From an uncultured archaeon (GTDB lineage Archaea > Asgardarchaeota > Lokiarchaeia > Sigyniarchaeales > SOKP01), in contig CAZALK010000010.1 of assembly GCA_964486045.1 (NCBI GenBank), positions 84,889-148,888 on the forward strand: DNA of 64,000 nt, given 5' to 3'. Numbering within the stretch: the stretch's first letter is position 1; each line of letters opens with the position of its first letter. Both the position numbers and the translations under genes were made by a program. Below are positions 8,356 through 34,544 of this stretch, piece after piece. The notes beneath the pieces were generated by a model. The model saw only the letters and a program-made list of their open reading frames with translations. It had not been told where the DNA came from and ran no database searches.

Positions 8356-8480
8356 TTATGAGACTGGTTTATATAGTATTCCTAAACCAGATGCATAATT
8401 TTTTACTTCTTGCATTTCTTGAGATGTCGGTCTTCGATTTATTTCTGGATAATCAAAACTATGATACTGAGGTCTATATT
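8356..8480 (-). pseudogene. Orphan duplicate of the last 40 codons of the radical SAM gene at 11119-12231
   Basis: Minus strand reads YRPQYHSFDYPEINRRPTSQEMQEVKNYASGLGILYKPVS*, 31/40 aa identical and collinear with 11119-11243. Confidence 0.93.
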
Positions 8481-8502
8481 TTTTATTATTAACCAATGAA
8501 AA

Positions 8503-9675
8503 TTAAGTCCAGAACTCTCTTTTTCTTGGCAAACTTTTATCATAAATATTTATCATCTCTCTCATTAAGTCTGCTCCTAAACTGATTTGATCTCCTTTAA
8601 CAGTATATTTTTTTTTAACTGGATCGTATTGGATGGAACCGGAATTAGAGACTGGTATGTTTAAGAATGGGGAATTTAAAATATCAGCAAGAAACTTGTT
8701 ACTACCAGAAGTTATTCTTGATCTCCCCATTGTCCCATCCCCATCATAATAACCAAGTAGAAACGCTAACAATAGCTTCCGATGTTTAAAATGTGGTAGT
8801 CGTATATTTTTTGATTTCTTTTTTCCTACTATAAATCCATGAGAAATAAGATAGTTACAAAATTGAGTGTTAATTAATCTAATTCTTCGAAATACATGTA
8901 TCTCACCTTCAGAAGTGATATATTTTTCAATACCGGGTTCATTGTTTATAATATCTAACCCAATAGAATCGGAAAACCTCTGCAGTAGAATGAAATCATC
9001 TTCTAGACACCCTACACCTAACCTATAATATGGTTCTCCTGCCTTATTTATACTATGTAATCTAATATATGCCTCAGCAAACAACCAACCTAACCAATAT
9101 GCTTTTTCATTTGTATCAATTTTTTTAAAATAATCAAGTTTTAGATTAGGGTGCTGCTCTAATATACCATTTGAACCACGAGCATATAGCTTAAGTTTAT
9201 TATAATTTTTATAATTTTTAATGATAGTTCTAATATTATTCTTTACTGAATCAATCTTATCTATTAATTTTGAATCCGATTCTTTTAATATCCAATAATT
9301 AAAAGATTTTATAAGGATATTTTCAATTTTCGTTAATAAATTTAAGCCTAATTGCTTTCCTTTTTGACTTTTTTGACATTTGTATCTAATATAATAAGGT
9401 TTTAAACCAAGCAACAGACTAAAGAATGCTGTATTTTCATTTGCTTTTCTGATACAAAAACAAGGATTTGGAATGAAAAATATTTGTTTTTTAATTGCTT
9501 TGAAAAGAGCAGTAGCATCAACAATTTTTTGTTCTTCTTCATCATTAGTAATAGTGATTCCAAAATCATCTTCAAAATTATTTATTCCACATTCTGGATT
9601 TATATTATAATCTTTACCTTTAAGCCTTACATCCTGCCTACAACTTAAGTCGTCTTTATTGTTTTTTTCGCTCAT
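8503..9675 (-). CDS. Free-standing two-motif LAGLIDADG homing endonuclease-like protein
   Basis: DYFKKIDTNEKAYWLGWLFAEAY and AFLLGYYDGDG motifs. Confidence 0.85.
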   Translation of the reverse strand: MSEKNNKDDLSCRQDVRLKGKDYNINPECGINNFEDDFGITITNDEEEQKIVDATALFKAIKKQIFFIPNPCFCIRKANENTAFFSLLLGLKPYYIRYKCQKSQKGKQLGLNLLTKIENILIKSFNYWILKESDSKLIDKIDSVKNNIRTIIKNYKNYNKLKLYARGSNGILEQHPNLKLDYFKKIDTNEKAYWLGWLFAEAYIRLHSINKAGEPYYRLGVGCLEDDFILLQRFSDSIGLDIINNEPGIEKYITSEGEIHVFRRIRLINTQFCNYLISHGFIVGKKKSKNIRLPHFKHRKLLLAFLLGYYDGDGTMGRSRITSGSNKFLADILNSPFLNIPVSNSGSIQYDPVKKKYTVKGDQISLGADLMREMINIYDKSLPRKREFWT

Positions 9676-9967
9676 AATATATCAGTCTCAATCAAGTGAA
9701 TTTTACTGCTTCCTACCATGCCGTTTATTCATCAATTACAATTTTTTTTTTTATAATCGGCATTATTCAATATTTTTTATAAATTTTCTATAAAAATACA
9801 AATATTTTCATTCTGTTCAACTATATAAAAATTTATGCTTATAAATTTTACGGAATATTTATAAAGGAAGAATTTATAAGAGGATTTCAATAGTATATAT
9901 AAAGGCAAAATCGTTAGGTTGAAAAAGGCAAAAATTTATAAACATAGATACTTATTTAACACCTTAC

Positions 9968-10042
9968 ACTACTATTAACTATTCTGAATGAATACCTAAT
10001 ACTACTATTAACATTTTTGGATGAATACCTGATATTACTATA
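9968..10042. repeat. Imperfect 33-bp tandem repeat (about 2.3 copies)
   Basis: ACTACTATTAAC...ATGAATACCT units starting at 9968 and 10001, partial third at 10034. Confidence 0.75.
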
Positions 10043-10373
10043 ATGTTTTATGACTCCGGTTTAGATTTGGTAAGTTAACTTATTCTTTTTGTTTAATCTT
10101 TATAAAAATCTCTCATTCAGAATTGAAGACTTTTGATGATGTCAATTTTTTTCCTTTAGTTTATGATTTTTATCACATTATATGATATGGGTTTTAAAAA
10201 TGAAGAAAAAGACTCAGTGTTTCATAGGTTTTAAATCATATAAAATATTCAAGAAAGATAAATTAGGAATCTAAGCAGAAAGTTGCTTATTCAATAAAAA
10301 AAACCCTTTCTACAGGTAGCTCAAAATCATTAAAACTTATATTAAAGACACTTGGATGGTGTTATAATTAATT

Positions 10374-11054
10374 ATGAGTAATATTAATATTATTTTGAAG
10401 AGATGTAATGAAGTTATTAATCAAGCAGAAGATGTTATAAAAAAGAATGAGCCTAGGCGTGTAATATACATTATTACCTCAATACAAAATATACTTAATA
10501 CAGTATATTCAGGTGAAGTTCCTGATTATTTGAATTATGAATATTTTATTGAACATGTTTTTCCAAAAATTTCAAGTCAGCCTGAATATATTTCAAAATA
10601 TAAAAAAATAGATAAACTTGTTGTTTACTTGGAAACATTTAAAGCCTTTAGAGATGACTTAGATAGTGGTTTAATTTCACACCTTTCTAATATTATATCT
10701 GTGGATATTTTTAGTAGTTTGATTGATCAAGCAACTCAACTTCGAGAAAATAATACTGAACCATTGAATCGAGCTGCATGTGTACTAACCAGAATAGTGT
10801 TGGAAGATACATTATTAAGATTAAGTAGAAATAATAACCTCACACTTTCTAATGAAAAAGCCTCTATAGCTAATGACGAATTGAGGAAGAAAAACATCTA
10901 TGGCCAGGCAAAGTGGAGAGAGATCCAATCATGGTTAGATATTGGAAATAAAGCTGCTCACCCTGATCCAGAGTTTATGACAATTAGCGAAATAGATATA
11001 GATAATATGATAAATAATGTGAGGAGATTTACTGAATTATATCTCCAGAATTAA
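10374..11054 (+). CDS. DUF4145/HEPN-domain protein
   Basis: RAACVLTRIVLEDTL helix and C-terminal GNKAAH motif. Confidence 0.7.
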   Translation: MSNINIILKRCNEVINQAEDVIKKNEPRRVIYIITSIQNILNTVYSGEVPDYLNYEYFIEHVFPKISSQPEYISKYKKIDKLVVYLETFKAFRDDLDSGLISHLSNIISVDIFSSLIDQATQLRENNTEPLNRAACVLTRIVLEDTLLRLSRNNNLTLSNEKASIANDELRKKNIYGQAKWREIQSWLDIGNKAAHPDPEFMTISEIDIDNMINNVRRFTELYLQN

Positions 11055-11118
11055 TTTAAGAAAAACAATGAGATGATAATCTGTTATACTAATAAGGAAA
11101 ACTCAATAATTTTCAAAA

Positions 11119-12231
11119 TTAAGAAACCGGTTTCCAGAGAATTCCTAATTTATCCGTATAACCTCTGACTTCTTGCATTTCTTGTGAAGTAGGTCGACGG
11201 TTTATCTCAGGATATTCAAATGATTTCCACTGTGGACGATATTGAGACATTATGTTTACGACAGCCTTCGATAACTCTTTAGCTACATAATCCAAAATCG
11301 GTTTAGAGCAACATTCTATATGTTTGGGCATAACAAGATGACGGATGATAATTTCACCACTACCCTCATCATGCACCCGTTTATGATTTCTAGCAATGAC
11401 ATCGAAGTAGTTATCAATACCAGAATATTTTTTGGCACATTGATTATTACCATACTTCCAATCTGGCAACCAAAAATCCATCAAATCAATAATGAGAGAT
11501 AAAGCTTTATCAGTCAAATAAAAATTGGAGTTCCAAAGTTGTGTGATATTTGACTTCTGATAAAGTAAGTTTCCAATTATTGTATGAATATTTGGAATTG
11601 GGTCTCCTCCCACATAATTAATATTTATTGCTCCTTTTTTGGCTAAATTATCTGCTATTACTGCTAATTGTTTGCTATCCACTTTTTGGGCTATGTCATC
11701 AATTTCCTTTTTATTTTTCCATGCTTGTGAAATATCGTAATTTTGGCAGAAAACACACCCAAAATTGCAACCTTGAAAAAAAATTGTCCCACTGGGAATA
11801 AGGGGTGTTTCTTCTCCCATATGTAGAAATGCTGAAGAAATATATGAATCTTTACTTATTAAACAAAATCCTACTTGTCCATCAATCCTATTCGTTTCAC
11901 ATCGACGCTCACAGTATATACAACTTTCAAGATATTTAATGGCTAGAGTTTCGATTAAATGGATATATGACCTAGGAGAAATTTTACGAGATTTAATTTC
12001 TTCGATGTTCTTTTTTAATAAATCATTAAACTCCCGTGATTTTTTTTTTAGTGTTATTTCAAGATTCTCAATCGAATCACTTGATTCATAATCACAATCA
12101 ATAGTTTTAGCGATTAAAAACCTTGCGATTTGTGAGCCATCAATAATCCCTCGATATCTTGAAAAGCGTTTAAGGATATCCTCATTTTGCCATACCGAAT
12201 CAGAATCTGGTCTAATGATTCTAAAAACCAT
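11119..12231 (-). CDS. Radical SAM protein, PflX-like pyruvate-formate-lyase activating enzyme family
   Basis: N-terminal CIYCERRC, GTIFFQGCNFGCVFCQN (CxxxCxxC), IIRHLVMP, NIMSQYRP. Confidence 0.9.
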   Translation of the reverse strand: MVFRIIRPDSDSVWQNEDILKRFSRYRGIIDGSQIARFLIAKTIDCDYESSDSIENLEITLKKKSREFNDLLKKNIEEIKSRKISPRSYIHLIETLAIKYLESCIYCERRCETNRIDGQVGFCLISKDSYISSAFLHMGEETPLIPSGTIFFQGCNFGCVFCQNYDISQAWKNKKEIDDIAQKVDSKQLAVIADNLAKKGAININYVGGDPIPNIHTIIGNLLYQKSNITQLWNSNFYLTDKALSLIIDLMDFWLPDWKYGNNQCAKKYSGIDNYFDVIARNHKRVHDEGSGEIIIRHLVMPKHIECCSKPILDYVAKELSKAVVNIMSQYRPQWKSFEYPEINRRPTSQEMQEVRGYTDKLGILWKPVS

Positions 12232-12256
12232 AATATGGGAAAAAAATCTTTGTTAA

Positions 12257-12988
12257 CTATCTTTCAAAAGATAACCATTCAATAATATTTGACAAAAATT
12301 TTAAATTGTCACCAGAATCAAGTCCAAAATCACTGTCTTCCGTTATCCAATCAGATGAACCAATTGATACACATCTACCTTCATAAAAACGGGAAACCGC
12401 ACAAATCGGGACTGGCCCAATTGCTCCTAATTCTTCATCGATGTAATATTTAAATTCTGATTTTTGAGAAGTCACAATTATATCATCTACATCTTCCTCA
12501 GAAATTGTAAGGAAAGTACTGTTTGGGAATACTAACTCGGTAATCCCCTCAGTAATAGGATGATTGAACATTTCAGTAATTAAGACATTGTTTTTTTTAA
12601 CTAAAAAATTAGATGAAGATTCTTGTATCAAACCATTCCAAAATCTCCGAACACCTGTAACCTTATATAAGACCCTAATAGATCCTTTTTTCATGGATAT
12701 ATCTCTATCCCCTCCATCTCCACTAGTTAAAAAAATACTACTCCCCTCTCCTACAAATTTTTTAATTGCTCTCAATTCATCATGGGTGAATTTATCATCC
12801 TTTCCGTTAATAGTATGTTGAATATTTCCTATGAATAATATGTCAAAATCTTCAAGTTTTTCGAACTCAATTGGACCTTCATTTTTATCAATATATTCTA
12901 TTTCATAACCGTCATCTCCTAAGGAAAATTCGGGGAATTCTTCAATTTTCTCCTTATGAGATAAATCTACTATTATATGGGATGACAT
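12257..12988 (-). CDS. Class I glutamine amidotransferase-like fold protein (DUF4350/GIFT-like)
   Basis: DLSHKE start, FTxDELxAIKKFVxEG, HPITEGI, GRCVSIGSS..DNLKFLSNIIEWL. Confidence 0.6.
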   Translation of the reverse strand: MSSHIIVDLSHKEKIEEFPEFSLGDDGYEIEYIDKNEGPIEFEKLEDFDILFIGNIQHTINGKDDKFTHDELRAIKKFVGEGSSIFLTSGDGGDRDISMKKGSIRVLYKVTGVRRFWNGLIQESSSNFLVKKNNVLITEMFNHPITEGITELVFPNSTFLTISEEDVDDIIVTSQKSEFKYYIDEELGAIGPVPICAVSRFYEGRCVSIGSSDWITEDSDFGLDSGDNLKFLSNIIEWLSFER

Positions 12989-13194
12989 TGTAATATTACG
13001 GGATTAAAGCAAGGTTTTTCTATGTTAAGATAAAATAATTACTTTAATAAACGTATGTAATTTTTATAAATTTTATCTATTATAATTCTATTTCTTAATT
13101 TTCTCTTTTAAATTTTATTAAAAAAGAAATAGAGAACGTAAAATTTAAATAATAGGAGAACGAGTTCATTTAGATTAAATAATTTAAATTGGAT

Positions 13195-13881
13195 TTATAT
13201 AGGGATAAATTCGCGCTCTACAGGACCTTCTTTTTTGATGATAACAATATCAATCCCATTACCACTGAACATATCTCGAATAATGCTAGATGTAACAGCT
13301 TTTCTAATGATTTGTTTACCCACTTCTACAGATAAATTATCCTTATATTTCGCTTCTAAAACACCATAAGAAAAATTTTGTCCACTTCCAATTGCACAAT
13401 ATTTTTCATTTAAAATGGAACCATAAGATCCGATGCTTAGAATTGTTGGACCTTCTCTTTCAGTTAATCCTCCTAACATTAACCCTACTTGAAAGGGAAA
13501 CATCTTATTAGAATATAATATGTTTGATAACATTTTTCCAGCAGATTTTACCAAAATTTTTTTATTTTCATGGTTTAACTGGAACATTGTAGTTTCTGCA
13601 CGTAACACATCTGCAAGATATTGAGCATCCGCTGGTGAACCTGCTATAGTCATCCATATATGATCTTGAATTTTTAAAACTTTTTCCGCAGTTTTACTTG
13701 CTACAAAATAACCCATCGATGCTCTTTTATCTGTTCCGAAAATAACTGCATCTTTACAAGTCAAACCTACTGTCGTTGTTCCAGTTTTCAAGCGGTTTGC
13801 AGTAATATTCTTTTCTATTTTTTGGGTCCTCTTAATTTCAAATCCAAATTTAGAAGAGTTTAATTTTTCTTCATTTCTCAT
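13195..13881 (-). CDS. psmB: Proteasome subunit beta
   Basis: Propeptide followed by KTG|TTTVG, DKRAS, GSG, RDMFSG. Confidence 0.95.
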   Translation of the reverse strand: MRNEEKLNSSKFGFEIKRTQKIEKNITANRLKTGTTTVGLTCKDAVIFGTDKRASMGYFVASKTAEKVLKIQDHIWMTIAGSPADAQYLADVLRAETTMFQLNHENKKILVKSAGKMLSNILYSNKMFPFQVGLMLGGLTEREGPTILSIGSYGSILNEKYCAIGSGQNFSYGVLEAKYKDNLSVEVGKQIIRKAVTSSIIRDMFSGNGIDIVIIKKEGPVEREFIPI

Positions 13882-14096
13882 ATGGTCATTTAAGGAGTTA
13901 TAATTTAATAAATTTCTTCTAATTTAATATAAACATTGGATGATCAAACCAAGAAAATTTATCAGAAATAATTAATAAATATTGAGATGATTTTATTAGT
14001 ATCTACATCAACCAAATTATTAACTAAGGAATTCTCAATAAGAGTCTAAATGTTAAAAACAATACTTTTAAAACAATTTTAAATAATCTTTTTTAA

Positions 14097-15029
14097 ATGG
14101 TTGAATTTATCGGGTTAGTTTTTACAACTTATGCTGTATTCACATGGGCAATAGTTTCACTTGTTTATAAAACAGGATTAGAGAAAACTGACCCAAAAGC
14201 AAATTTATTTTTTAGATTATGTTGTGTCTCAATTGGTTCACTTTTTTTCTCTCTAATTTTCGGAAATTTTCTAATTTTTAGTAGCATGAATAATTCTGAA
14301 TTGGGATTATATCTATTAGCGTGTCTTATATCAGGAATTAGCGTCACAATTGGGGATTTACTGTATTATTTCTCATTAAAGAAAATAGATGCCTCCCGTG
14401 CGTATCCTCTCGTCCAGCTCTCACTTATTTTTGTGTTTCCATTTAGTGTCTTTTTATTTGGTGAAGAATTGAAACTTTCAGTATTATTTGGAGGTTTATT
14501 ATTCTTAACTAGTGTTTTTATACTAAGTTCTAAGGATAAAAACGAAATCGAGACTAACGGAAGTTTAAAAAAAAAAGAAGCTGAAAATGTTATTATTGGA
14601 GCCGTGTTCGCTGTATGTGCTGCCTTTCTTTGGGCTGTAGCGATTATTTCTTTTAATCAAGCAAGAATTATTTCGAATGATGTATTCGTAACAAATTTCT
14701 TAAGAGTGGCTATGGCAACAATTTTATTCCTTATATTAGGAATATTCAAGCCTGTTTATTTTTCGGGTTTTAAAAAGGAAAGTCGAGGAAATTTAAAATA
14801 TTTTATATATATAGGAATCGCAGGCATAATTTCTTTAGGATTGGCAGATTCATTATTTTATAAAGCAGCAGAAATCAATGGGTTAATTCTAACAACAGCT
14901 ATTACAATTAATACACCTTTCGTAAATTTTTGTTTCTCAATTTTAATTTTAAAAGAAAAGTTTCGCAAGAGGTTTCTAGTTGCGGTTGGGTTGATAATTT
15001 TAGGTAACTATGTCATATTATTCATTTAA
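14097..15029 (+). CDS. EamA/DMT family transporter
   Basis: Ten TM helices in two repeats ending LFGE / ILKE. Confidence 0.85.
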   Translation: MVEFIGLVFTTYAVFTWAIVSLVYKTGLEKTDPKANLFFRLCCVSIGSLFFSLIFGNFLIFSSMNNSELGLYLLACLISGISVTIGDLLYYFSLKKIDASRAYPLVQLSLIFVFPFSVFLFGEELKLSVLFGGLLFLTSVFILSSKDKNEIETNGSLKKKEAENVIIGAVFAVCAAFLWAVAIISFNQARIISNDVFVTNFLRVAMATILFLILGIFKPVYFSGFKKESRGNLKYFIYIGIAGIISLGLADSLFYKAAEINGLILTTAITINTPFVNFCFSILILKEKFRKRFLVAVGLIILGNYVILFI

Positions 15030-15186
15030 TTCTATTAAAAATAATTATACTTTAACTCTTGCTCAGAAAGCTATTTAAATCAAAGTCAAAAATAATAAAA
15101 AATAAACAACAACAAATAAAAATGAAAGAAATAATTTAATTATTTAATTAGATTAGCACAAAATTAAAATTCTAGATGAAAATAAT

Positions 15187-15867
15187 ATGATGTTATTCTT
15201 ACATAAGGATAAAATTCGAGCAGACAGCTATATTACAGGTTTTTATGTTTTAGGCTATGTACTTTTTTTTGTGTTCTTTAGATTAGAAGTGATAATGTCA
15301 TTGATAGTTTATCCTTTCATAGCATTATTTTTTTATGGTATAATAAAAATAATTGATGGGACCAACAAAAGAAACAGAGGAAATATGAAAAATCTCAACA
15401 GAGTTTTATTTGGATTATCTTTAATAGCCTTTTCAATAGTATTCCTTAACTTTTTTCTTAGATTACCTAACGTATCTTTTCAAAATACAATCCATTTAGC
15501 TGCCTATCCAATTCTTATTGTAGGAGTTTCAAGCATAATTAAAGGGAGTTTAATTGAAGTTTATTCAATAAAGTTTCGGTATATTAATATCCTGATTGGA
15601 GGAGTATCGATAGTAATCTGTATGCTAGCCTTCCTCTCTTCTCGTATATTTCCACCTATTCTTAATATTTTTCACGTATTTTCTCTCACTATTATTCTCA
15701 TAGTTAATATTGTAAGCAGAGCCGCGCTATATTTAAGCGAGTACAATTTATCGGTTTTGAATTTCAGAAATTTTAAACTCTTCTTCTATATAATCTCTGA
15801 TTACTTTATTTATATAAACAAGGATGGGAATATTGTTTTGAATAAACTGGCACAAAATATAAAATAA
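15187..15867 (+). CDS. Hypothetical membrane protein (about 6 TM, HdeD/DUF308-like)
   Basis: Hydrophobic helices; no diagnostic motif. Confidence 0.55.
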   Translation: MMLFLHKDKIRADSYITGFYVLGYVLFFVFFRLEVIMSLIVYPFIALFFYGIIKIIDGTNKRNRGNMKNLNRVLFGLSLIAFSIVFLNFFLRLPNVSFQNTIHLAAYPILIVGVSSIIKGSLIEVYSIKFRYINILIGGVSIVICMLAFLSSRIFPPILNIFHVFSLTIILIVNIVSRAALYLSEYNLSVLNFRNFKLFFYIISDYFIYINKDGNIVLNKLAQNIK

Positions 15868-15893
15868 AATTCAACCCATAGACTTAAAATTAT

Positions 15894-17084
15894 TTAAGAT
15901 AGTGCATTTTCAATACGATCCATTCCCTTTATGATATTTTCACGAGAGATACAATAAGAAAAGCGAATATATTCTTCTTTTTCCTCGGGAATTTTTTTTC
16001 CAAAGTATGTTCGGGAAAGAACTGCGACATCCAAATTTTCTAAAAAATATTCTTGCAGTTCTAAACTGTTTTTAAGGTTCAATTTCTTACAAGCTCCTGT
16101 GACATTAGCAAATATATAAAAAGCTCCTTTAGGTAAGACAGCTGTGATTCCGTCTATTCTATTTAATCTTTTATGAATAAGATCCCTCCGTCTTTTAAAC
16201 TCTTTTATCATGGAAATTGAAGGTGCTTTATCCCCGGTAATAGCAGTGGTTCCTGCCATTTGTGTAAATGTTGCTGTGCAAGAAATTGTGTTTGTTAACC
16301 ATCGTGCAAAATATGCAGCTAAATCTTCATTAACAATAGCATACCCTAATCTCCATCCAGTCATAGAAAAGAACTTACTAAATCCGTCTAAGATTATGGT
16401 TCTCTCTAACATCTCTGGTAGAATGGCTATAGTTTTATAATTAATATTATCATACACAATATTAGAATAAATCTCATCAGAAAGAATCCATAGATCATTT
16501 TCTACAGCAATCTTGGCTAAAATCTCTAAATTTTTTTGATTGAGTACAGATCCTGTTGGGTTTTGGGGGCTGTTGATGATAATCAATTTTGTTTTGTCAG
16601 AGATTTTGTCTAATAGACCTTCAATATTATAGTTCCATTCTTCACTTTCTAGTAATTGTGCAGATATAGCCTTACACCCGTGAACATTTATTAAACTCTC
16701 ATAAATTGGATATCCAGGGTTCGGATATATTACCTCATCTCCCGGATTTGTGCACGATAATATGGTTAAATCCACAACAAATTTAGCACTAGGTAAAACT
16801 ACAACATTTTTAGATGTAACATTTAATCCTCTGTTTTCATTCATGAACTCAGCAATTCCACTCCTTAACTCAGGAATTCCAGCAGATATTGAATAATGTG
16901 TGAAATTCTTCTTAATTGCTTCAATACCTGCTTTTTTAATATGTTTTGGTGTATCGAAATCGGGTTCACCAATTGAGAATGAGATTATATTTTTTTTCCT
17001 TCTTTCTGGAAAACTTTGAATACGACTTAACACCTCAAAAGCAGTTTCAGTACCTAGCCGATTTAACCTTTCAGCATAATTCAT
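15894..17084 (-). CDS. PLP-dependent aminotransferase class I (aspartate aminotransferase-like)
   Basis: GEPDFDTP, NSPQNPTG, SDEIY, GFSKFFSMTGWRLG. Confidence 0.94.
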   Translation of the reverse strand: MNYAERLNRLGTETAFEVLSRIQSFPERRKKNIISFSIGEPDFDTPKHIKKAGIEAIKKNFTHYSISAGIPELRSGIAEFMNENRGLNVTSKNVVVLPSAKFVVDLTILSCTNPGDEVIYPNPGYPIYESLINVHGCKAISAQLLESEEWNYNIEGLLDKISDKTKLIIINSPQNPTGSVLNQKNLEILAKIAVENDLWILSDEIYSNIVYDNINYKTIAILPEMLERTIILDGFSKFFSMTGWRLGYAIVNEDLAAYFARWLTNTISCTATFTQMAGTTAITGDKAPSISMIKEFKRRRDLIHKRLNRIDGITAVLPKGAFYIFANVTGACKKLNLKNSLELQEYFLENLDVAVLSRTYFGKKIPEEKEEYIRFSYCISRENIIKGMDRIENALS

Positions 17085-17282
17085 TTTAAGATCAAGTTAC
17101 CCTTTTTTAGTTCCTTTTTCCTATTTAACAGAAAAGATTTAGTGTTATTTAATGTTTTATAAAGAAATGACTACGGGGAAAGATATCCCATAAAATTAAG
17201 TGAAGTAGTTGTTCAATCAGACCCTAAGATGAATTTCCCGAATTAATTAATTAGATGGTTTTTTCAGAAGGAGTTAAGAAAA

Positions 17283-20265: not shown

Positions 20266-20961
20266 ATTTCAGAATATTTATCTTTAGCGTTATCACTTGA
20301 ATATATTATTGTAACACATAGAGAGTCGCAAGAAATCATTTATTATAAGACAGCAGGTAACTTTGATCCTGATTTACTTGATATTTTCCGAAGTTCAATT
20401 CAATATGGAATTTTAAACTTACCACCTGAACAAGGTGAAATTGAACAAGCTACTTTAGAGGGTAAATTTCTAATTACTCGTGCCGGTAGGATGATCTGGA
20501 TTACTTTAATTAAAAATAACATCCCTACGCTTTTTGCAAGAGAAGTTTTAAAAATTTTTTGTGAGATATTTGAAGATTCATATAACCGTGAGATTATTGA
20601 CTTGTATTCACATTTTAAAGGTGATATTTCCATTTTTCGAAAGGAATCGAAATCCCGGCAAAGCATTGAGGGTTTAATTGAAGATGTTTTTCATTTATAC
20701 TTGAATTTGCCATTTAAAATAGGCTCCTCAAAAGGTAAAAAATTATCCCCAAAATCAAAAAAGATAATTCAGTTTGCAAAAGACCTTATTCATAAAACTA
20801 AAGATTACATTTATTTGGAAAAATTATTTAACGAAGTGAGTAGGTCTCTTACATTCAATAATGAAGATCCTGCCGATTTAATTTTTGATTTAGTTAATAC
20901 TAAAATTCTCTTGCCAGTCTCTTTAGAAAATGGAAAAAAGAAATTGATTGTTCATTTCTAA
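20266..20961 (+). CDS. Longin-like domain protein (reading frame extends well upstream of ATG 20491)
   Basis: Frame open from 20251; upstream part SLEYIIVTHRESQEIIYYKTAGNFDPDLLDIF looks like a longin N-terminus; putative ATT start at 20266. Confidence 0.6.
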   Translation: MSEYLSLALSLEYIIVTHRESQEIIYYKTAGNFDPDLLDIFRSSIQYGILNLPPEQGEIEQATLEGKFLITRAGRMIWITLIKNNIPTLFAREVLKIFCEIFEDSYNREIIDLYSHFKGDISIFRKESKSRQSIEGLIEDVFHLYLNLPFKIGSSKGKKLSPKSKKIIQFAKDLIHKTKDYIYLEKLFNEVSRSLTFNNEDPADLIFDLVNTKILLPVSLENGKKKLIVHF

Positions 20962-21035
20962 GTGAAAACTTTTTTGATCAAAAAGTTGAAAAAAATGTAA
21001 TATTGATGTTGAATGGAAGGTATTCATTTTTTTTG

Positions 21036-21665
21036 TTAATCTGTATCTTCTAATTTATTGATCAAGGAAGCCCCACAATTAGGGCAATATTCTATTTCTC
21101 TGCCAATTTCAGATCCACATTTATAACACATTATTTCGAGCTCAAGAACAATAGGAATGATTTCCATAACATTTTTTAAGGTTTCTGTTAAAGCCTTTCG
21201 AATTTCTTCGACTTTCTCTTTCTTTTTTTCCTGTGGAAAAGAGTGCACGTAAATTGAAGAAAGCTCTACTAAAAAATTCTCAATAAATTTGAGTTGATCA
21301 AGATAATTCTTATTTACCTTATGTTTTAATAATTCTTCTCCCGCTTCAGTTAAAGAGTAGACTTTTCTCAATGGACCTATTGGACTTTTAACCTTTTGGG
21401 CTTTTAAAAATCCATCTTTGTCCAGTTTTGATAATATCGGATAAACAGTGCCAGATTGGGCCTTCCAAGTTCCAGCAAAATGCCTATTAAGGTTTTTAAT
21501 CAAATCATAACCTGAGAGTTGCTTGCTATTAAAAATGTTTTCAATTATTATAAATTCAAGGGGTGTAAGCCTACTTTTTTTTAGATTAATAAATACTTCC
21601 TCTCGAATCTTAGACTTCAAGCTTTTTAAATCTTCCTCAAAATCTAAGAACTTACCAAGCCACAT
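21036..21665 (-). CDS. PadR-family regulator with C-terminal zinc ribbon
   Basis: SGYDLI..GTVYPILSKL..RKVYSLTEAG; CxxC..CxxC tail. Confidence 0.9.
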   Translation of the reverse strand: MWLGKFLDFEEDLKSLKSKIREEVFINLKKSRLTPLEFIIIENIFNSKQLSGYDLIKNLNRHFAGTWKAQSGTVYPILSKLDKDGFLKAQKVKSPIGPLRKVYSLTEAGEELLKHKVNKNYLDQLKFIENFLVELSSIYVHSFPQEKKKEKVEEIRKALTETLKNVMEIIPIVLELEIMCYKCGSEIGREIEYCPNCGASLINKLEDTD

Positions 21666-23056: not shown

Positions 23057-23163
23057 AAAGAATAATGGGATTGACCAATTCTAAAGTAGAGTTAGCCTTT
23101 GCGTTTTTGCCATAGATTAATTAAAAAAATATTTAAAAATGAGACTAGATTTACTTTTCCATT

Positions 23164-25969: not shown

Positions 25970-26000
25970 AAAATAAGTAGATAAAAATCCTTTTAATTTA

Positions 26001-26537: not shown

Positions 26538-26685
26538 ATTTGTAAATTGGTAAATCTTACATTAAATATTTTTCCCTCTCGGATAATATGTAGATGTTAT
26601 CACCATATTTCTTCTATTTTTGTTTTAGATACCTTATTATCTAAATTAGTAAGCAAATTTTATGTTATTTTCTTGGGGAAACAAG

Positions 26686-27030
26686 ATGGGAAAACTTTGG
26701 AGAAAAAAAAATGATAATGACCTATTGAGCTCCCCACAAGAGGCAATGGGATTCTCAAAAGAATATTCTTCGCTGCTACATAACTTTATCATAAAGAAGT
26801 ACGACTTCTCAAACCTCAACCAAATAGAGGATATTAAAAAGCAATTATTAGGTCGCAGAATACTACTGATTAACGTAAAAGAAATTTTGGAGAATGGAGA
26901 AGTGTCAGAACTAAAAAGTTGCATAGAAGAATTGAAAATTTTTTTAAGAGAGAATGGAGGATCTATAGGGCGTCTTGGTGATCAATATCTCATATTAACA
27001 CCAAATTCTCATATAAAAATAGCAAACTAA
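26686..27030 (+). CDS. sepF: Archaeal SepF (cell division)
   Basis: IEDIKKQL..ILLINV..IEELK..GGSIGRLGDQYLILTP pattern; start at ATG 26686 or 26662. Confidence 0.78.
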   Translation: MGKLWRKKNDNDLLSSPQEAMGFSKEYSSLLHNFIIKKYDFSNLNQIEDIKKQLLGRRILLINVKEILENGEVSELKSCIEELKIFLRENGGSIGRLGDQYLILTPNSHIKIAN

Positions 27031-27047
27031 TGAACCTTACGAAATAA

Positions 27048-27548
27048 TCACCTTTCATTAGACTTATGCTTGATGATCAAATCCCGAAATACCTTGAGAT
27101 TCTTCTTCCTTTGGTCAATATAACCCTCAGTCCACCCTCTCGTCTCATCGTACTCCCATGTAGTAGAGTAAAGAATCGCATCGTACACCTCAAAGGGCAT
27201 TCTTGTTTTGGTATAAAGTATTAATAAGCCAAGAATCTGATACCCGATATATATATCATCCATATCCGCAACCCAACTACCCTTAAGGGGTGGTTTTGGT
27301 CTCAAAATGGGGTTCTCGACAATCTCTTTAAATTTATGAATATAATTTAGAATCTCATCCAAGAAATATTCCAGTACCTTACTGGTGATTACCTTTCCAA
27401 GAGAAGAGTAAGAAGTTTCGAAATCAAGCCCACAGAGCTCAAGGAAAAACCTCTCCCATTGATGTTCATGATCTAGCTCCCTAATATCAAAAGGATTTAA
27501 ACCTCTGCTTATTAATTCATCCATTACCTCCAACATATTATTCTCCAT
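27048..27548 (-). CDS. Hypothetical protein (islet cargo)
   Basis: 166-aa ORF with protein-like composition; no recognised family. Confidence 0.7.
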   Translation of the reverse strand: MENNMLEVMDELISRGLNPFDIRELDHEHQWERFFLELCGLDFETSYSSLGKVITSKVLEYFLDEILNYIHKFKEIVENPILRPKPPLKGSWVADMDDIYIGYQILGLLILYTKTRMPFEVYDAILYSTTWEYDETRGWTEGYIDQRKKNLKVFRDLIIKHKSNER

Positions 27549-27616
27549 TTAAAAAAAGAAGAGTATATTTTTTTATAAAAAATATAGAAATATTAATATT
27601 TAAAATTAGAGCGTTC

Positions 27617-27829
27617 TTATTTATATTTCCCTAAATAGTATCCTGATAAACTAGAATATGATATGATTATGTCATCAAAGGATAATGACTCGTAATTCCG
27701 GTCATTAGTTGCGCGAAGAAGCGTTTCGTAAAACAATTTTAGCTGAACATTAGATTCAAACTGAACTTGGAAGGTATTCTCCATAATATCTCTTGGATCT
27801 TTACCCCACCTAAGTAATTCTACCGTCAT
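27617..27829 (-). CDS. Small hypothetical protein (islet cargo)
   Basis: Likely start MTVELLRWGKDP at 27829; the longer ORF call runs into the sepF repeat. Confidence 0.45.
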   Translation of the reverse strand: MTVELLRWGKDPRDIMENTFQVQFESNVQLKLFYETLLRATNDRNYESLSFDDIIISYSSLSGYYLGKYK

Positions 27830-27999
27830 ATCCACTCTTAATAGAGCCTTCAAGGTAGAAAAGAGATAAATATGGTTTTCTCCTAGTATATAAGTTGCGA
27901 GTTGATGTATGAACAATTTTGAGTTGAGAGAATTCTCTGAGACTCCTGCACGTGATGACACCAAATTCTCATATAAAAATAGCAAATTAATAAGTAGGA

Positions 28000-28725
28000 T
28001 TATTTAATTTTCGGAATCAGTAAAACAAAATTGCTTCCTTTTGAAAAATCCCCTTTAACTTTATCTTCAATCCAAATTTCACCCTTATAGGAATCAACCA
28101 AATTCTTAACTAAAAATAATCCAAATCCCATAGTTTTTCCATTATTTGGGCTTGTATTCTTCAGTTTAAAAATATTCTTTTTCCTTTCATTATCGATTCC
28201 AACACCATTGTCTATAAATTCCATTTTCAAATATTTCTTCTTATGTTTACACACTTCAGAAATTTTGATTGTTATTTTAATGATTTCATTTTTATTATGT
28301 ACAACCGCATTGATTAATAGATTTTCGAACACATCTTGAAGGAGTGAATTCGCATTAACGTAATATTCCGTGAAAGAAGTATTAACATTAAACGTTACAT
28401 TCTCTTGAAGTGGAGTCTTTACAAAATTAAGTGCAGTCCTCAATAAATCACATACCTCAATTTTATGAAGATTCAATTGATCCTTCTCTAGTTGAGAAAG
28501 TTTATGGACATTTGATATAAGTCTAAATCCCCTTGAAGTTTGCTGTTTAATTGTTCCAAGAAGATCTTTTACTTTACCCTTTCGTTTTGGATCATTGATG
28601 TAAAGATCAGTAAGTTCACTTGAAGTTCTTATATTTTGTAAAATCTGATTTAAATCGTGGATCAACAAGTTAGATAGGAGATTGTCTTTTTCCATTTGAT
28701 TATCTGAATTAAAAATTTCAAACAT
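28000..28725 (-). CDS. Sensor-less histidine kinase (HisKA + HATPase)
   Basis: HDLNQ H-box, VFENLLINAVVH, DNGVGI, GFGLFLVK. Confidence 0.88.
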   Translation of the reverse strand: MFEIFNSDNQMEKDNLLSNLLIHDLNQILQNIRTSSELTDLYINDPKRKGKVKDLLGTIKQQTSRGFRLISNVHKLSQLEKDQLNLHKIEVCDLLRTALNFVKTPLQENVTFNVNTSFTEYYVNANSLLQDVFENLLINAVVHNKNEIIKITIKISEVCKHKKKYLKMEFIDNGVGIDNERKKNIFKLKNTSPNNGKTMGFGLFLVKNLVDSYKGEIWIEDKVKGDFSKGSNFVLLIPKIK

Positions 28726-29079
28726 GAATTTAAGGTCTTTACAAATCTGTCTTGATATTTATATATTAATTATTAAAACAAGTATTTAAATAAATAGTTG
28801 TTTAATTTTTCATGTCAGTCATATGAAAAAAAAGAAATATTAGGAAATGTTGGAGAAATTAAAATAAGTGGAAGAATTATTTTATGGTGTTTATATTAAC
28901 ACTTCTAATAATTGTAATTTTGATGCATCATTATCTTGTTTCAACTATAAGTATTTCTCCGATACTAAATTCCCCCTGTGCTCTAAAACAGTTAAATTTT
29001 GAATTATTTACATTCTAATTTATGATAATTTAAAATATAAAAACTATAATGGTAAATGTTTGTATGCAACTCCCTCCTA

Positions 29080-30600
29080 CTATTCCTTGAAAATTATAAT
29101 ATCATCCCATACAGATCTCTCTTTCCCGTAAGGATCATTTTCTACTTTTATATCCTTCCCGAATATCATGGTTGCTCTATTATCTCTATATTGAGCCCAT
29201 TTTGGAACTTCTTTATTATTAGGGTTACCGTTTCTAGCGAACGAAATCCAACAATCCATCATTTTTCCACTAAGTTCCTCAGTTTCTTTATTGGATTCAG
29301 GGAATAACTTGAAGTTCACATTCCGAGGTGTGTCTAATGTACCGAATACGAAGGGAATTTCAATTGCGTGAACAGAACCTAACGATCCATTTCTTATAGG
29401 TGAAGGATAAGTGAACATATACATATAAGTGTCAGGTTGATTTTTCGATTGCATTTCTGCTAATAATGTGGATGGTACACGGAAAAATGCATCAGTTACT
29501 ATAGCACTATATACCTCGGTAGGATTTTCCCTCGTCTCACTATAAAGATCAATTATTTCGCGGACTTTTTCTTCGGATTGTCCCATTGGTTTCATCATTA
29601 AATTCAATCTATTGAATAATGCTTCAGTATTTTTTATGCCAGGATACCATAATTCCCATAATCTCATTTCATCTTTATTAGTACCGTGTAAAATTTCAAT
29701 GTTTTTTGTTTCACCATCAAGCACAGCTTTTAGAGGATGTTTTGGTAATGTTTTACCGTCAATGAGAGGGGAATACCCTAAAGCAAATGCAGTTCCTCCT
29801 TCCAATACTTGCTGATCCATCTTTGTCTGAGCCTTGATAATCTCCTCTGCCGAAATTTTTCTTAAACTGTCAATATCATCTTTTTCGATTTTCAGAAGTG
29901 AAGCTAACCTTTGTGCCGTTGCTATTGCCCTACCCTTTTGGTAACCAAGCGGATTTGTGCTTCCAGATTGTGGGATAATGCGATTAAACAAACCCTTAGC
30001 TGTAGGCATGCCAAGTAAACAACAAATTGCTCCCGCACCAGCAGATTCACCAAATACGGTAACATTCTCTGGATCTCCCCCAAAGTTCACAATATTTTCT
30101 TTAATCCATCTTAACGCTTCGATTTGATCGAGCAACCCAACATTTGCCGAAAAATTAGGGGCATCGGGAAGATAAAGAAACCCTAAAGGTCCTAATCTAT
30201 AATTAATTATAACTATAACTACATCACCACGAGCTGCTAAAGGAATTCCATCATAATTATTCGCTGAACCAGTCTTATATGAACCTCCATGGATCCAAAA
30301 CATAACAGGTCGTTTCTTATCATCGGATGCTGGAGTCCAAATGTTAAGTGTAAGGCAACTTTCTTCCCTCTGTGGAGGAGCAGGATCTGGAGTGAAAGGA
30401 CTGGGAGGTTGTGGAGCAACAGGACTCAACTCAGTTGCTTTTAACACACCATTCCATGAGTGCTTCGACTTTGGAGCATTAAATCTTAATTCCCCAACAG
30501 GAGGTTCCGCGTATGGAACTCCTTTATATATTTCTATACTTTTATCAATATATCCTTGTAGCTTTCCACTACTAATCTCAATAATTTTTGTTTTTTTCAT
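29080..30600 (-). CDS. Carboxylesterase type B (pnbA-like)
   Basis: GVPYAEPPVGELRF, WIHGG, FGGDPENVTVFGESAG. Confidence 0.94.
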   Translation of the reverse strand: MKKTKIIEISSGKLQGYIDKSIEIYKGVPYAEPPVGELRFNAPKSKHSWNGVLKATELSPVAPQPPSPFTPDPAPPQREESCLTLNIWTPASDDKKRPVMFWIHGGSYKTGSANNYDGIPLAARGDVVIVIINYRLGPLGFLYLPDAPNFSANVGLLDQIEALRWIKENIVNFGGDPENVTVFGESAGAGAICCLLGMPTAKGLFNRIIPQSGSTNPLGYQKGRAIATAQRLASLLKIEKDDIDSLRKISAEEIIKAQTKMDQQVLEGGTAFALGYSPLIDGKTLPKHPLKAVLDGETKNIEILHGTNKDEMRLWELWYPGIKNTEALFNRLNLMMKPMGQSEEKVREIIDLYSETRENPTEVYSAIVTDAFFRVPSTLLAEMQSKNQPDTYMYMFTYPSPIRNGSLGSVHAIEIPFVFGTLDTPRNVNFKLFPESNKETEELSGKMMDCWISFARNGNPNNKEVPKWAQYRDNRATMIFGKDIKVENDPYGKERSVWDDIIIFKE

Positions 30601-30810
30601 AATAATTCACCTTAGATTTATATCTAAATAAGTTTATCTTCTTTTTTGAAAAATTTCGATAAACCTTTCGATTTGGTCTATATGCTATTTTTTCTTTTAT
30701 ATCCCTTATCTAATGATATTTCATCTCAATTCTTAAATATTAAAAAAATATTTATTTGATTAAATAATTAAAAACATAACGTAGAATATTTTAAACGAGA
30801 TTTCATTTCA

Positions 30811-31122
30811 ATGTCATCGCAAAATACTATTAATCGTACACTCTCGAAAGCCATTCTTAAGGACGAGGTAAACATCAAATTAAAAATTTGGAATACATAT
30901 TTAACGGGAAAACTTATTCAATTCGATAACTATATGAATTTAATCGTTGAAGATGCGAAAGAGATCTATTTTGGTCGGGGGGGAAAACGTTCTAAGGATT
31001 TGGGAACTGTGATGATTAGGGGGGCAAGTGTGATTTTCATAGGCCAGGATCGTGAAAAACTAGTATTCACTGATGATTCAGAGGAAGATTTAATGCATCA
31101 TTCAGAGGACGAGGGAGGTTAA
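30811..31122 (+). CDS. Sm-like (Lsm/SmAP) protein
   Basis: GKLIQFDNYMNLIVEDA and MIRGASV; directly upstream of rpl37e as is usual in archaea. Confidence 0.92.
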   Translation: MSSQNTINRTLSKAILKDEVNIKLKIWNTYLTGKLIQFDNYMNLIVEDAKEIYFGRGGKRSKDLGTVMIRGASVIFIGQDREKLVFTDDSEEDLMHHSEDEGG

Positions 31123-31127
31123 ATGAA

Positions 31128-31349
31128 ATGACTAAAGGTACTCCAAGCAAAGGTAAGAAAAATAAGGCACCTAGCCATAAAACCTGTAGACGTTGCGGAC
31201 ATCATTCATATCACCGGAGCAAGAGGTTTTGTGCGTATTGTGGATTTGGACGATCAGCCAAAATAAAAAAGCCCTCGTGGCGCAATAGACACCGTGCGTT
31301 TAACGGTAATAAGTCGTTTTACCGCAATAAAAGAAAAGCATCTGCATAA
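31128..31349 (+). CDS. rpl37e: 50S ribosomal protein L37e
   Basis: MTKGTPS.GK..H..CRRCG..SYH..CAYCGFG. Confidence 0.96.
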   Translation: MTKGTPSKGKKNKAPSHKTCRRCGHHSYHRSKRFCAYCGFGRSAKIKKPSWRNRHRAFNGNKSFYRNKRKASA

Positions 31350-31928
31350 CCACTCGACCTAACATTTTACATTGGTTTTCATCTCAACCTTAGATTAAGG
31401 AAAAATGATATATCTTCTTTATATCAAAATAAAGGAAGAACATTGGAAATAATGAAAATCGTTGTTTCCCTCTTTCCTTCGATATCTCAGATAAAGTTCA
31501 TGGGGTGATGAATTCAGAAATTAATTATAGAAAAAATAGAATATGAAAAAATTTTAAGATCTTTAATCTTATCAAGTTTCGGTTTGATTTATGAGGATTG
31601 GAAACGAAAGGAACTTATCGATTATTAAAATCTTTTTCTTATCAGGTAAAATTTCAAAGTAAGGTAAAACTTTCTATCTTGCACTTCTCTACAAAGCCAA
31701 TCTATACTTAAATTCTTATACTTTGATTGAAAAATTAAACTGCAGATATATTTACAAATAATAAAAATGATTAAAAATTAGGTTTTTTTGATGTTAAGAA
31801 TAATAAAATATTCACATTTCTCTTTTTGACTTATTTCACTTTTTCTTATTAATCGACTAAAAGAGAATTTGATAATCCGAATTTCGCTCAATATTTAAAA
31901 AGGTAAATACTTATAATACTATTAGGGA

Positions 31929-33500
31929 ATGACAGAGTTTCGAATTAACAAATTTATCACTTTGGAGCTGGAAGGGAAAGATACAGTAATTTATGTATCC
32001 GGTAAACGATTCCAGCAATGCATGTACCTATTTTTAGTTATTCCCGTTGATAACCTTGACCAGATTTATGAGATTGAATCTATTGACGAGGTTGCTGAAG
32101 AACTTGATAGATCTATTAACCCAAAATATAGCAGACATATGAGAATCTCACCAGAAGAGGAGTTCTGGGCGCACTGTAGCAATATTCAAGCGTTCTATGA
32201 AAATAACTATAACACCAAGATACTTCATAGAAACTTGGCGTTCCCGCTATTGATGAAGCTTTATGAAGCCGAGGATCCTAAAGCCATAAAAGTATTTAAA
32301 GAAGAGATTGCTCAAAGGCTTTCAAGCGATCATGAAAATACGGTTCTCTTTTTGTTGGAAAATAACTATCAATTTTTTCTCACAACTGAAGAATTCGATA
32401 CTGTTTATCATAGTCAAGACTCAGAAAAAAAAACCCTGATTAAGGAATTCATACACGACAGATTTAACGATAATAAGACTGACATTGAACTACAAAATAA
32501 GCTTTTTGAGTATATCAAAGTGATGTGTTCGAAGCAAGAATTACAAAAATATCAATATGTGACGTTCAATGAGAGAAAATATTTTGTTAGAGAAGGAGGA
32601 TTGACTATTAATGAAAAAGGAATTATTATTGACAGAATTGGTCAGATAAAAGGGTTATCTAAGCTCAAAGGATTGAAGAGACTGACGATCCTACGCACTT
32701 TGATTACTTCAACCGCAGGATTGGAAGGTCTAACTCAATTAGAACACCTAGATTTATGTGTAAATAGAGTCAAGATAATAGAGGGATTGAATACACTAAT
32801 CAACCTGAAGAGTTTGAAATTATCATATAACCAAATCGAAAAAATATCTGGACTAGAAACTCTGAAGAACTTAGAAGAATTACTTTTAAATTCCAATCAA
32901 ATTACTGAGATAAAGGGGCTTGAATCCCTTACAAAATTAAAGAAGTTAACCCTACATTCTAATTTAATCAGTGAAATTAAAGGGCTAGCCACCTTATTAA
33001 ACGTAGAGCAACTTAATTTAAGTCGCAATAAAATCTCAAGAATTAAGGGTCTGGAAGGTGTTATAAAATTAAATTATCTAGACCTTAATAGGAATAGCAT
33101 AGAGAAAATAGAAGGTTTGACATCCCTTAAGGAATTAGAAAGCCTTGTACTAGAGAACAATTGCATAAGTAAAATAAGAGGACTAGACAATCTTAGTAAA
33201 CTAAAATCCCTTAATTTAGGAAAAAACAAAATCACAGAAATGGAGGGATTAGATACTCTAAATTGTCTTACTTCGCTATGGCTCGATAAAAACCAGATTC
33301 TTGAGATGAAAGGGTTAGATGAACTTAGAAATTTGCGTGAAGTTAACCTACAAGAAAATTTAATATACGGTATTCGCGGGATTAATGAATTTAAAAGCCT
33401 AGAATATTTAAACCTTTATGGTAATAAACTTATAGAAGATATAAATCACGAATTCGAAGGATTTTTTGAAATAAGAAGGGTATTAGATAAACAGAAATAA
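31929..33500 (+). CDS. Leucine-rich repeat protein (SDS22-like repeats) with Lokiarchaeal N-terminal domain
   Basis: About 11-12 LxxLxLxxNxIxxIxGL repeats; N-terminal EEEFWAHCSNIQAF..ILHRNLAFPLL. Confidence 0.9.
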   Translation: MTEFRINKFITLELEGKDTVIYVSGKRFQQCMYLFLVIPVDNLDQIYEIESIDEVAEELDRSINPKYSRHMRISPEEEFWAHCSNIQAFYENNYNTKILHRNLAFPLLMKLYEAEDPKAIKVFKEEIAQRLSSDHENTVLFLLENNYQFFLTTEEFDTVYHSQDSEKKTLIKEFIHDRFNDNKTDIELQNKLFEYIKVMCSKQELQKYQYVTFNERKYFVREGGLTINEKGIIIDRIGQIKGLSKLKGLKRLTILRTLITSTAGLEGLTQLEHLDLCVNRVKIIEGLNTLINLKSLKLSYNQIEKISGLETLKNLEELLLNSNQITEIKGLESLTKLKKLTLHSNLISEIKGLATLLNVEQLNLSRNKISRIKGLEGVIKLNYLDLNRNSIEKIEGLTSLKELESLVLENNCISKIRGLDNLSKLKSLNLGKNKITEMEGLDTLNCLTSLWLDKNQILEMKGLDELRNLREVNLQENLIYGIRGINEFKSLEYLNLYGNKLIEDINHEFEGFFEIRRVLDKQK

Positions 33501-33548
33501 AAGAAATATAAAATAAAAAAAGATATAAAAACTAACTGAAGACTTGAG

Positions 33549-34224
33549 ATGCTAGCCCAAATCGTCTGATAAAAGTTCTCCGAATAAAGCCAAAAGAAGA
33601 TCTAACAAAATTACTCAAAAAGAAATCGAAGAAGTTACCCTAAAACCCGACCTTTTTAATCAGAACTTAGACCAAGAATACAATAGAATTTTTCCCCTTT
33701 TAATTAGAAACATAAAAAAGAAGTATAACCTCAAAGAACTAGGTAAAGTATGGAAAGAAAACAACCACCTCATTTTTAATTTTGAGATTGTCATGGAAGC
33801 CGACGTTCGAAAGCTAAACGATAGACGAAAGGAATTATCGCTAAAAATCATTAACGAAACCAACCCGAAAATTATTCGGCAATACCAATCCAAGATAGAA
33901 AAGTTAAAAACATTTATTCTTAAGTACACAGGCAACGTTTACACCCCACTAATTAAAAAGTATAACTCGCTAAAAGACACTATTAATACACAGTTAGAGC
34001 AGTTTTGTTTTACCGTTGTGGATGCATTCAATACAAAGCTTGAAAAAGTTTCGAAAAAATTTGCTATGAATATTACCGAATTCTATTTTGATGACGGTTT
34101 AGAACTTCGAATAATAATTAAGAATAAATCATCAAGCATTTTTCCTCTTAAAAGCCTACAGTTTAAAGATTTGGATACTAAACACAAAAAAGTAATAATC
34201 CAGATCCTCAAGACCGGTTTATAA
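33549..34224 (+). pseudogene. Hypothetical helical protein, probably frameshifted right after its start codon
   Basis: Frame of ORF 33793-34224 is open from 33556; the nearest upstream ATG (33549) is out of frame. Confidence 0.45.
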
Positions 34225-34544
34225 TGATAAGTTCACTACTTGATGCATTTACTACTATTATTAAATACTCGAAGTAAAACGGGGATCGGTCTTTTAGTCT
34301 TAGTTCCCAACGTTCTTCCTTATTACAATATGATAAGAGATTTATCTTTCTGTTTTTGTCTCAAACTTTCAGTGAAAAATTAGGCATAAATCGTTTTACC
34401 GCAATAAAAGAAAAGCTTCTACGTAAGTTGAATATTTTAGTATAAAAATCTTATTCTTAAAGGTTTAAGAGATATTAATTATTATTGAGCTTAAAATTAT
34501 GATTAATTATTACTCTTTAATTCAAATCTATGCCATAAAAATAA

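Follow-up and report, generated by a model that had tools for sequence, protein, structure and literature searches.

In E. coli, e14 and phage 21 are integrase-borne elements that rebuild the 3' end of the icd gene. The cis-mobilisable elements (CIMEs) of streptococcal integrative and conjugative element (ICE) and integrative and mobilisable element (IME) systems are cassettes flanked by attachment (att) sites and without recombination genes. Integrase-borne archaeal elements, such as the thaumarchaeal integrated mobile genetic elements (iMGEs), also integrate at gene 3' ends with restoration of the tail (PMC6563490). The mobile elements published for Asgard archaea make use of tRNA genes or of an 11-bp motif (PMC8813620, PMC11529989). 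In fungal mitochondria, mobile endonuclease open reading frame (mORF) gene hybrids have been described in atp6 of Allomyces macrogynus and in atp6, atp9, cox2, and nad3 of Glomus; the native C-terminus matches close relatives, and the inserted one is divergent and phylogenetically discordant (PMC3630166). Homology-facilitated illegitimate recombination is known from transformable bacteria (PMC3240628). Here we analyze a stretch of 64,000 nt (the window) from a lokiarchaeal contig (CAZALK010000010.1, positions 84,889 to 148,888), in which a radical SAM gene, sepF, and rpl37e are each followed by accessory DNA and then by a second, orphan copy of the gene's own tail. We call such insertions tail-replacing islets.

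All three pairs of tail copies are ungapped and terminate at the stop codon, in agreement with a first-pass annotation of this DNA, which had reported three conserved genes with downstream tail duplicates. The radical SAM copies lie at 11119-11244 and 8356-8481 (88/126 identical, zero indels), the sepF copies at 26998-27030 and 27958-27990 (32/33), and the rpl37e copies at 31309-31349 and 34386-34426 (37/41). In the orphan radical SAM tail the frame is open and the stop codon is retained. Targets and flanking genes were named from Pfam matches (Radical_SAM, FKBP26, SepF, HATPase/HisKA, Ribosomal_L37e, LSM, and Robl_LC7), which bore out the FKBP, kinase, and Roadblock neighbours given in the annotation. 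The repeats are not an assembly artefact, a refutation that the annotation had itself raised, because both junctions of the sepF and rpl37e islets were recovered in independent Logan contigs, and the sepF and radical SAM islets, as well as an islet at the elongation factor EF-2 gene elsewhere in the genome, are present in ENA scaffolds. The three window islets showed no integrase or transposase, no terminal inverted repeat, and no end sequence in common. Inverted repeats at islet ends were not above shuffled controls, and tRNA and Rfam scans of 6-37 kb gave no match. The earlier view that no mobility gene is visible is nevertheless wrong for the radical SAM islet, where it had overlooked a LAGLIDADG endonuclease open reading frame (ORF) at 8503-9675 on the minus strand.

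The rpl37e islet is composed of the following features:

31128-31349, plus strand: rpl37e gene (Pfam), with an imported tract at 31259-31349 (91 nt) that includes the repeat copy at 31309-31349
31350-34385, plus strand: islet cargo of 3036 bp, with a leucine-rich repeat (LRR) protein at 31929-33500 (Pfam LRR), a 143-aa membrane-type protein at 33793-34224, and a repeated module to about 34372
34386-34426, plus strand: orphan (native) rpl37e tail; the native intergenic region and the Roadblock gene (34545-34919) come next

In each of the 21 same-genus genomes compared, LSm, L37e, and Roadblock lie immediately next to one another, an empty site. The islet is also absent from a sister strain, about 98.6% identical and from a second sample of the same study, whose contig joins window position 31258 to 34386. 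In this islet-free sequence (L120/L121, an ENA scaffold and a contig), L37e continues straight into what is orphan sequence in the window, and the 41-nt orphan and all downstream DNA are 100% identical to the L37e tail of the sister strain. The two strains are near-identical to about 31258, and window positions 31259-31349 are strongly diverged. Because the islet-free strain carries the orphan sequence as its real L37e tail, the orphan is native, and it is the in-gene tail, together with the 50 nt before the repeat, that was imported. The imported tract of 91 nt compares with an orphan of 41 nt, and 50 native bases were lost. On the left, the junction falls within homologous sequence of the gene near 31258; the right junction (34385/34386) has no homology.

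The rpl37e cargo has paralogue families elsewhere in the genome. Window positions 31929-32408 encode an unannotated N-terminal domain of about 156 aa, with which many LRR and other proteins begin (it has more than 30 paralogues genome-wide) and which recurs as cargo in three tail-replacing islets, those at rpl37e, EF-2, and a third locus on contig C23. A conserved hairpin/T-run module of about 110 nt lies behind the genes of the 143-aa membrane-protein family (window 34225-34372) and has copies on C10, C11, C13, C3, and C1. It is also found alone and may serve as a shared terminator or represent a small repeat element. Elsewhere in the window, the sister strain has 192 other letters in place of 186 nt at 20918-21105, and about 21 nt are inserted near 23058 (23058-23060).

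The radical SAM islet has the following features:

7158-8273, minus strand: FKBP26-type gene, the ancestral downstream neighbour of the radical SAM gene (Pfam and congener adjacency)
8356-8496, minus strand: orphan (native-type) radical SAM tail, beginning 7-24 nt past the endonuclease stop and in frame with the endonuclease
8503-9675, minus strand: free-standing LAGLIDADG homing endonuclease gene, 390 aa, family assigned via homologues
10173-11118, no strand: variable cargo slot with a DUF4145-like gene at 10374-11054 on the plus strand (weak Pfam match)
11119-11244, minus strand: in-gene (imported) radical SAM tail copy, 88/126 identical to the orphan
11119-12231, minus strand: radical SAM gene, 370 aa, Pfam Radical_SAM; a mosaic whose imported tract covers the last ~500 nt (about 11119-11650)

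The islet-free order, with the radical SAM and FKBP genes separated by a gap of about 95 bp, occurs in about 11 of 19 congeners, and other DNA lies between the two genes in the rest. The in-gene tail is phylogenetically foreign: its last 126 nt match congener G022 at 92.9% identity, against 72% for the gene body. Compared with the tails of every relative, the orphan reaches 69-77% identity, which is the divergence level of the gene body, and it tracks the host lineage. Between the in-gene and orphan copies, the proportions of synonymous and non-synonymous differences (pS and pN) are 0.70 and 0.20, respectively. The sister strain also carries an islet here, and its differences from the window are confined to the last ~500 nt of the radical SAM gene and the cargo slot. 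The two sequences are 100% identical upstream of about 11680 and 72-90% identical from 11620 to the stop codon. An unrelated 2.4-kb segment with two other genes then replaces the 0.94-kb DUF4145 segment of the window, and from about 500 nt upstream of the endonuclease onward the sister strain is 97% identical again.

A third copy of the imported radical SAM tail, which is frameshifted, lies at C13:20279-20440 on the minus strand (L088:8280-8441; 163 nt, 95.7% identical to window 11111-11273). It is flanked by a truncated Schlafen/STAND gene and by a Zn-ribbon ORF, within a Schlafen/HEPN region that is defence-like. In five congeners (L059, L060, L062, L064, and L069) a conserved gene of about 315 aa is found on the opposite strand between the radical SAM and FKBP genes, and the radical SAM tails of these same five are closer to the window's imported tail than their gene bodies are.

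The ORF at 8503-9675 encodes a LAGLIDADG homing endonuclease associated with this site, and cleavage is predicted. Its own Pfam score is weak (E 0.017). The 239 homologues are mostly from Asgard archaea; most carry PF14528, and several are named LAGLIDADG homing endonuclease. In a 35-sequence alignment the DGDG stretch of the second motif is invariant. So is AYWLG in the first motif, whose acidic position lies outside the conserved columns; in the window this first motif has FAEA, where the family consensus has AEG. A solved-structure sequence search with the endonuclease gave no match. It is the sole free-standing copy of its family in the genome, the other copies being located inside inteins.

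Homologues with 69-88% identity were found at the radical SAM 3' end in four other records (L107-L112), and also in the sister strain (L131). In L107/L108 the homologue is 88% identical and is followed, after 13 nt, by an orphan radical SAM tail that is 88% identical in amino acids to the window orphan. The homologues in L109-L112 are 69-75% identical and convergent to the radical SAM stop. Two of the four records share the endonuclease-plus-orphan junction. In the window a single TAA (8496-8505) separates the endonuclease ORF from the same-frame orphan tail; the sister strain has this arrangement, and L107 does not. Apart from this locus, C14:38871-43136 (minus strand) encodes an acidic-repeat protein of 1421 aa in which a LAGLIDADG domain (MLGDGH, LFDTDGS) is embedded, and its end overlaps the end of a convergent neighbour.

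The sepF islet has these features:

26662-27030, plus strand: sepF gene (Pfam SepF), with the repeat copy at 26998-27030
27031-27957, no strand: sepF islet of 927 bp, with a 166-aa ORF at 27048-27548 (minus strand) and a doubtful 122-aa ORF at 27617-27985 (minus strand)
27958-27990, plus strand: orphan sepF tail, 9 nt from the stop of a convergent histidine-kinase gene (28000-28725, minus strand)

The lone difference between the in-gene and orphan sepF tails is synonymous. This islet is common to both strains, and sepF and the kinase gene are adjacent in one congener, G022. No Pfam or PHROG family was matched by the ORFs of the islet. Homologues of the 166-aa cargo protein occur in only 4 of 53 congeners, and their loci show no convincing flanking tail repeats. 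The first-pass annotation had expected empty sites in relatives and had left it to comparison to decide which tail is ancestral. Empty sites occur at all three loci, and the orphan is the native copy, as read from the sister strain at rpl37e and from the tail comparison at the radical SAM gene.

About 20 tail-replacing islets are present genome-wide, most of them without a recombinase gene. They were found by self-comparison of the 5.18-Mb genome for isolated pairs of short direct repeats separated by at most 15 kb; k-mer tail scans were filtered because tandem paralogues dominated. In 22 of 135 isolated pairs, one copy ends within 12 nt of the stop codon of a longer gene. The orphan is downstream in 18 of these tail-type pairs and upstream in 4 (one-sided binomial P about 0.002), and only 4/135 pairs involve gene heads. 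The recurrence that the annotation had suspected from three cases is therefore borne out. The targets include S7, L37e, EF-2, SepF, NadB, acetyl-CoA synthetase, Ras-like GTPases, and ferredoxin. As cargo the islets carry accessory genes (for LRR proteins, PAS kinases, surface proteins of the beta-helix type, PIN, MFS, a peptidase, and unknowns), and islet sizes are 0.4-8 kb. Among 24 islets there were no shared ends or motifs beyond cargo paralogues, and Pfam and PHROG scans of small cargo ORFs revealed no mobility functions. A gene on C4 (95982-97427) was tried as an islet and rejected: an orphan head (152 nt) and tail (58 nt) lie side by side at C4:99882-100095, which looks like an internally deleted paralogue. 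C32:443-1973 holds a repeat array with a 61-nt period, possibly a clustered regularly interspaced short palindromic repeats (CRISPR) array.

Taken together, 19 tail pairs show 199 synonymous differences against 143 that are non-synonymous (pN/pS 0.19, binomial p about 6e-51), and 14 of the 19 orphans have no internal stop. With this ratio and with orphans that are mostly free of internal stops, the tail copies are alleles that diverged under selection in different lineages and not local duplicates. The proposal of two functional alleles instead of one decaying copy is upheld by the same figures. Local duplication of a tail with one copy decaying is therefore largely refuted, together with assembly artefact, and we regard both as highly improbable: the 32/33 identity of the sepF copies would suit duplication, but the pN/pS and the retention of frame and stop by most orphans are unexpected under neutral decay, the in-gene radical SAM and L37e tails are phylogenetically foreign, and the junctions are reproduced in independent assemblies.

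Two islets outside the window bear on the mode of insertion:

C13:94157-95766 (L094): EF-2 islet, 1.5 kb, integrase-less, at the aEF-2 3' end; empty site at L124:5555-5662
C23: islet of 8.4 kb at a VWA gene, with a 195-nt tail repeat, carrying a tyrosine integrase

One sample carries the EF-2 islet, and in the sister strain the site is empty. The islet's repeat of 45 nt is 44/45 identical; the imported copy recodes R-S-stop via four synonymous changes, no native base was lost, and the repeat flanks decay on the element side. A casposon was considered, given that the 3' end of ef-2 is a casposon target, and was rejected on the 45-nt repeat and on inverted repeats not above shuffled controls. 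The 137-aa ORF of this islet matched no Pfam family, and neither of its ORFs matched a PHROG family. The genome has five tyrosine recombinases. One lies inside the C23 islet and none in the window islets, so the earlier expectation of islets free of recombinases held for the window and failed at C23. Further sister-strain comparison for four other islets recovered same-strain contigs or none.

We consider it probable that foreign DNA has recombined into the 3' ends of conserved genes, with tail homology anchoring the event and the initiating enzyme differing from islet to islet. The incoming DNA brings a diverged but functional gene tail, so that the host gene stays intact and the native tail is stranded downstream as an orphan. 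Homology between the incoming and resident tails would anchor the exchange. The data establish the insertions and their polarity, which tails are imported and which native, the recurrence, and the identity and site association of the endonuclease. How the DNA is cut and repaired, and in what form it arrives, we infer locus by locus. At the radical SAM gene, the layout of gene, imported tail, cargo slot, endonuclease, and native tail suggests that alleles without the endonuclease would be cut and repaired from a donor; this would co-convert up to ~500 nt of the 3' end and bring in the cassette, and the slot between imported tail and endonuclease would exchange cargo. The rpl37e islet, which has a like footprint but no nuclease gene, may have arisen by break repair from an islet-bearing donor, or by one-sided homologous plus illegitimate joining. 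At sepF and EF-2, the near-identical flanking repeats of 33-45 nt point to a single conservative crossover of a tail-bearing circle, which could be homologous (Campbell type) or catalyzed by a recombinase in trans.

Several points weigh against this account. A set of heterogeneous mechanisms is less parsimonious than a single one. Pfam/PHROG scans found neither a nuclease nor a recombinase gene in the sepF, rpl37e, and EF-2 islets, and profiles for HNH, HNH_3, GIY-YIG, LAGLIDADG_1/3, and the endonuclease family had no matches inside other islets; in particular, no decayed HNH gene was recovered in the nadB islet. The donor of the imported L37e tail was not found among genome and metagenome contigs with exact-junction and degenerate coding patterns. 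A distant homologue of the endonuclease, P0054, adjoins a type IIG restriction-modification gene, with no tail duplication at that locus. The occupied EF-2 allele keeps every native sequence of up to 45 nt, to which a homing-type model of site disruption is a misfit.

The strongest alternative is that the islets are remnants or cis-mobilisable derivatives of integrase-borne elements, with the tail repeat as att site and the integrase lost or acting in trans. The C23 islet, of the same architecture, carries a tyrosine integrase, and the conservative 45-nt repeat of EF-2 with its decay on the element side resembles a gene-derived attP. The perfect repeat cores of 29 nt (sepF) and 26 nt (rpl37e) would also suit such sites, and 14 of 68 thaumarchaeal elements integrate in protein genes, within 3'-distal regions (PMC6563490). 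However, the rpl37e junctions are non-conservative, with the 50 native bases lost, and the radical SAM repeat is just 70% identical with a longest core of 18 nt. The islets have no common ends, and it is not plausible that five tyrosine recombinases serve about 20 unrelated repeat sequences. Moreover, the sepF and rpl37e islets leave almost no non-coding room for a decayed integrase, and the L37e site is empty in all congeners searched, with no integrase-bearing element. We therefore judge an integrase-borne origin of the islets to be possible but unlikely.

The first-pass annotation had favored a single general, integrase-free, and possibly trans-acting system that moves circles or fragments of gene tail plus cargo into gene 3' ends. 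Recurrence with a directional bias, the absence of recombinases from most islets, and the polymorphism of the rpl37e and EF-2 islets between near-identical strains would all fit. The stray frameshifted tail copy on C13 shows that tail-bearing fragments relocate, and direct repeats would permit loop-out by homologous recombination. This claim did not survive in its general form. Junction type differs (conservative at EF-2, non-conservative at rpl37e), the radical SAM islet has its own endonuclease and the C23 islet its own integrase, and no common motif, end, gene, or enzyme was found. Circular junctions were not seen in the contigs, which were the only material searched, and several joints fall in the repeated 33.6-34.3 kb family. 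A single system is accordingly doubtful to the point of being improbable, and recombination anchored by tail homology, with an enzyme that varies by islet, remains our preferred explanation.

The genomes of Asgard archaea are large and hold many accessory paralogues, among them LRR proteins, small GTPases, histidine kinases, and surface proteins. To our knowledge, little is known about the mode of gene gain in these archaea. One such mode is offered by the roughly 20 small insertions described here, whose anchors are the 3' ends of conserved genes (L37e, S7, EF-2, and SepF among them), and gene gain is ongoing, because at least two islets are polymorphic between near-identical strains. The islets make housekeeping genes mosaic, which is relevant to marker-gene phylogenomics. 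The cargo slot at the radical SAM gene would turn a selfish endonuclease into a gene-delivery vehicle. As a tentative extension, which we think unlikely, the islets could be a self-perpetuating class of recombinase-free tail-anchored cassettes. Their two-allele flanks would allow loop-out by homologous recombination and re-entry at the same conserved gene in related genomes, with endonucleases and integrases as only occasional boosters. If this were true, such cassettes of Lokiarchaeal genomes would count among the main routes by which accessory genes move in the closest prokaryotic relatives of eukaryotes.

Compared with thaumarchaeal iMGEs and e14, the islets share a replacement tail with mostly synonymous changes, flanking direct repeats, and conserved targets including ef-2. 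They differ in that the window islets and most of the approximately 20 lack an integrase, are small, and include a non-conservative case at rpl37e. Measured against tyrosine-integrase elements, an integrase inside the element was absent from the three window islets and found only at C23; recombination was conservative at EF-2 and not at rpl37e. CIMEs are similar as flanked cassettes without recombination genes, but a cognate integrase-bearing element at the same sites was not found (21/21 L37e sites empty; radical SAM and sepF loci fetched), and the repeat sequences of the islets are all different. Homology-facilitated illegitimate recombination resembles the rpl37e case, with one homologous and one non-homologous junction and recipient bases lost. 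This process is not known in archaea, however, and predicts neither the bias of tails over heads nor the conservative junctions of EF-2.

In the literature we found no description of small recombinase-free tail-replacing islets in Asgard archaea, nor of a chromosomal archaeal mORF-type element. The likeness of the radical SAM islet to the mitochondrial mORF hybrids extends to the order of gene core, inserted C-terminus, LAGLIDADG endonuclease ORF, and native C-terminus. In addition, the native copy tracks relatives, the inserted copy is discordant, and differences are largely synonymous; two LAGLIDADG motifs and homologues at the same site complete the correspondence. The differences are also clear. 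Here the element sits on an archaeal chromosome and targets a radical SAM gene, and cleavage is predicted. A variable slot of 0.9-2.4 kb with unrelated cargo genes lies between the imported tail and the endonuclease, and some relatives of the endonuclease are convergent to the gene and have no orphan. With the radical SAM islet, the mitochondrial mORF elements gain, as far as we found, their first counterpart on an archaeal chromosome.

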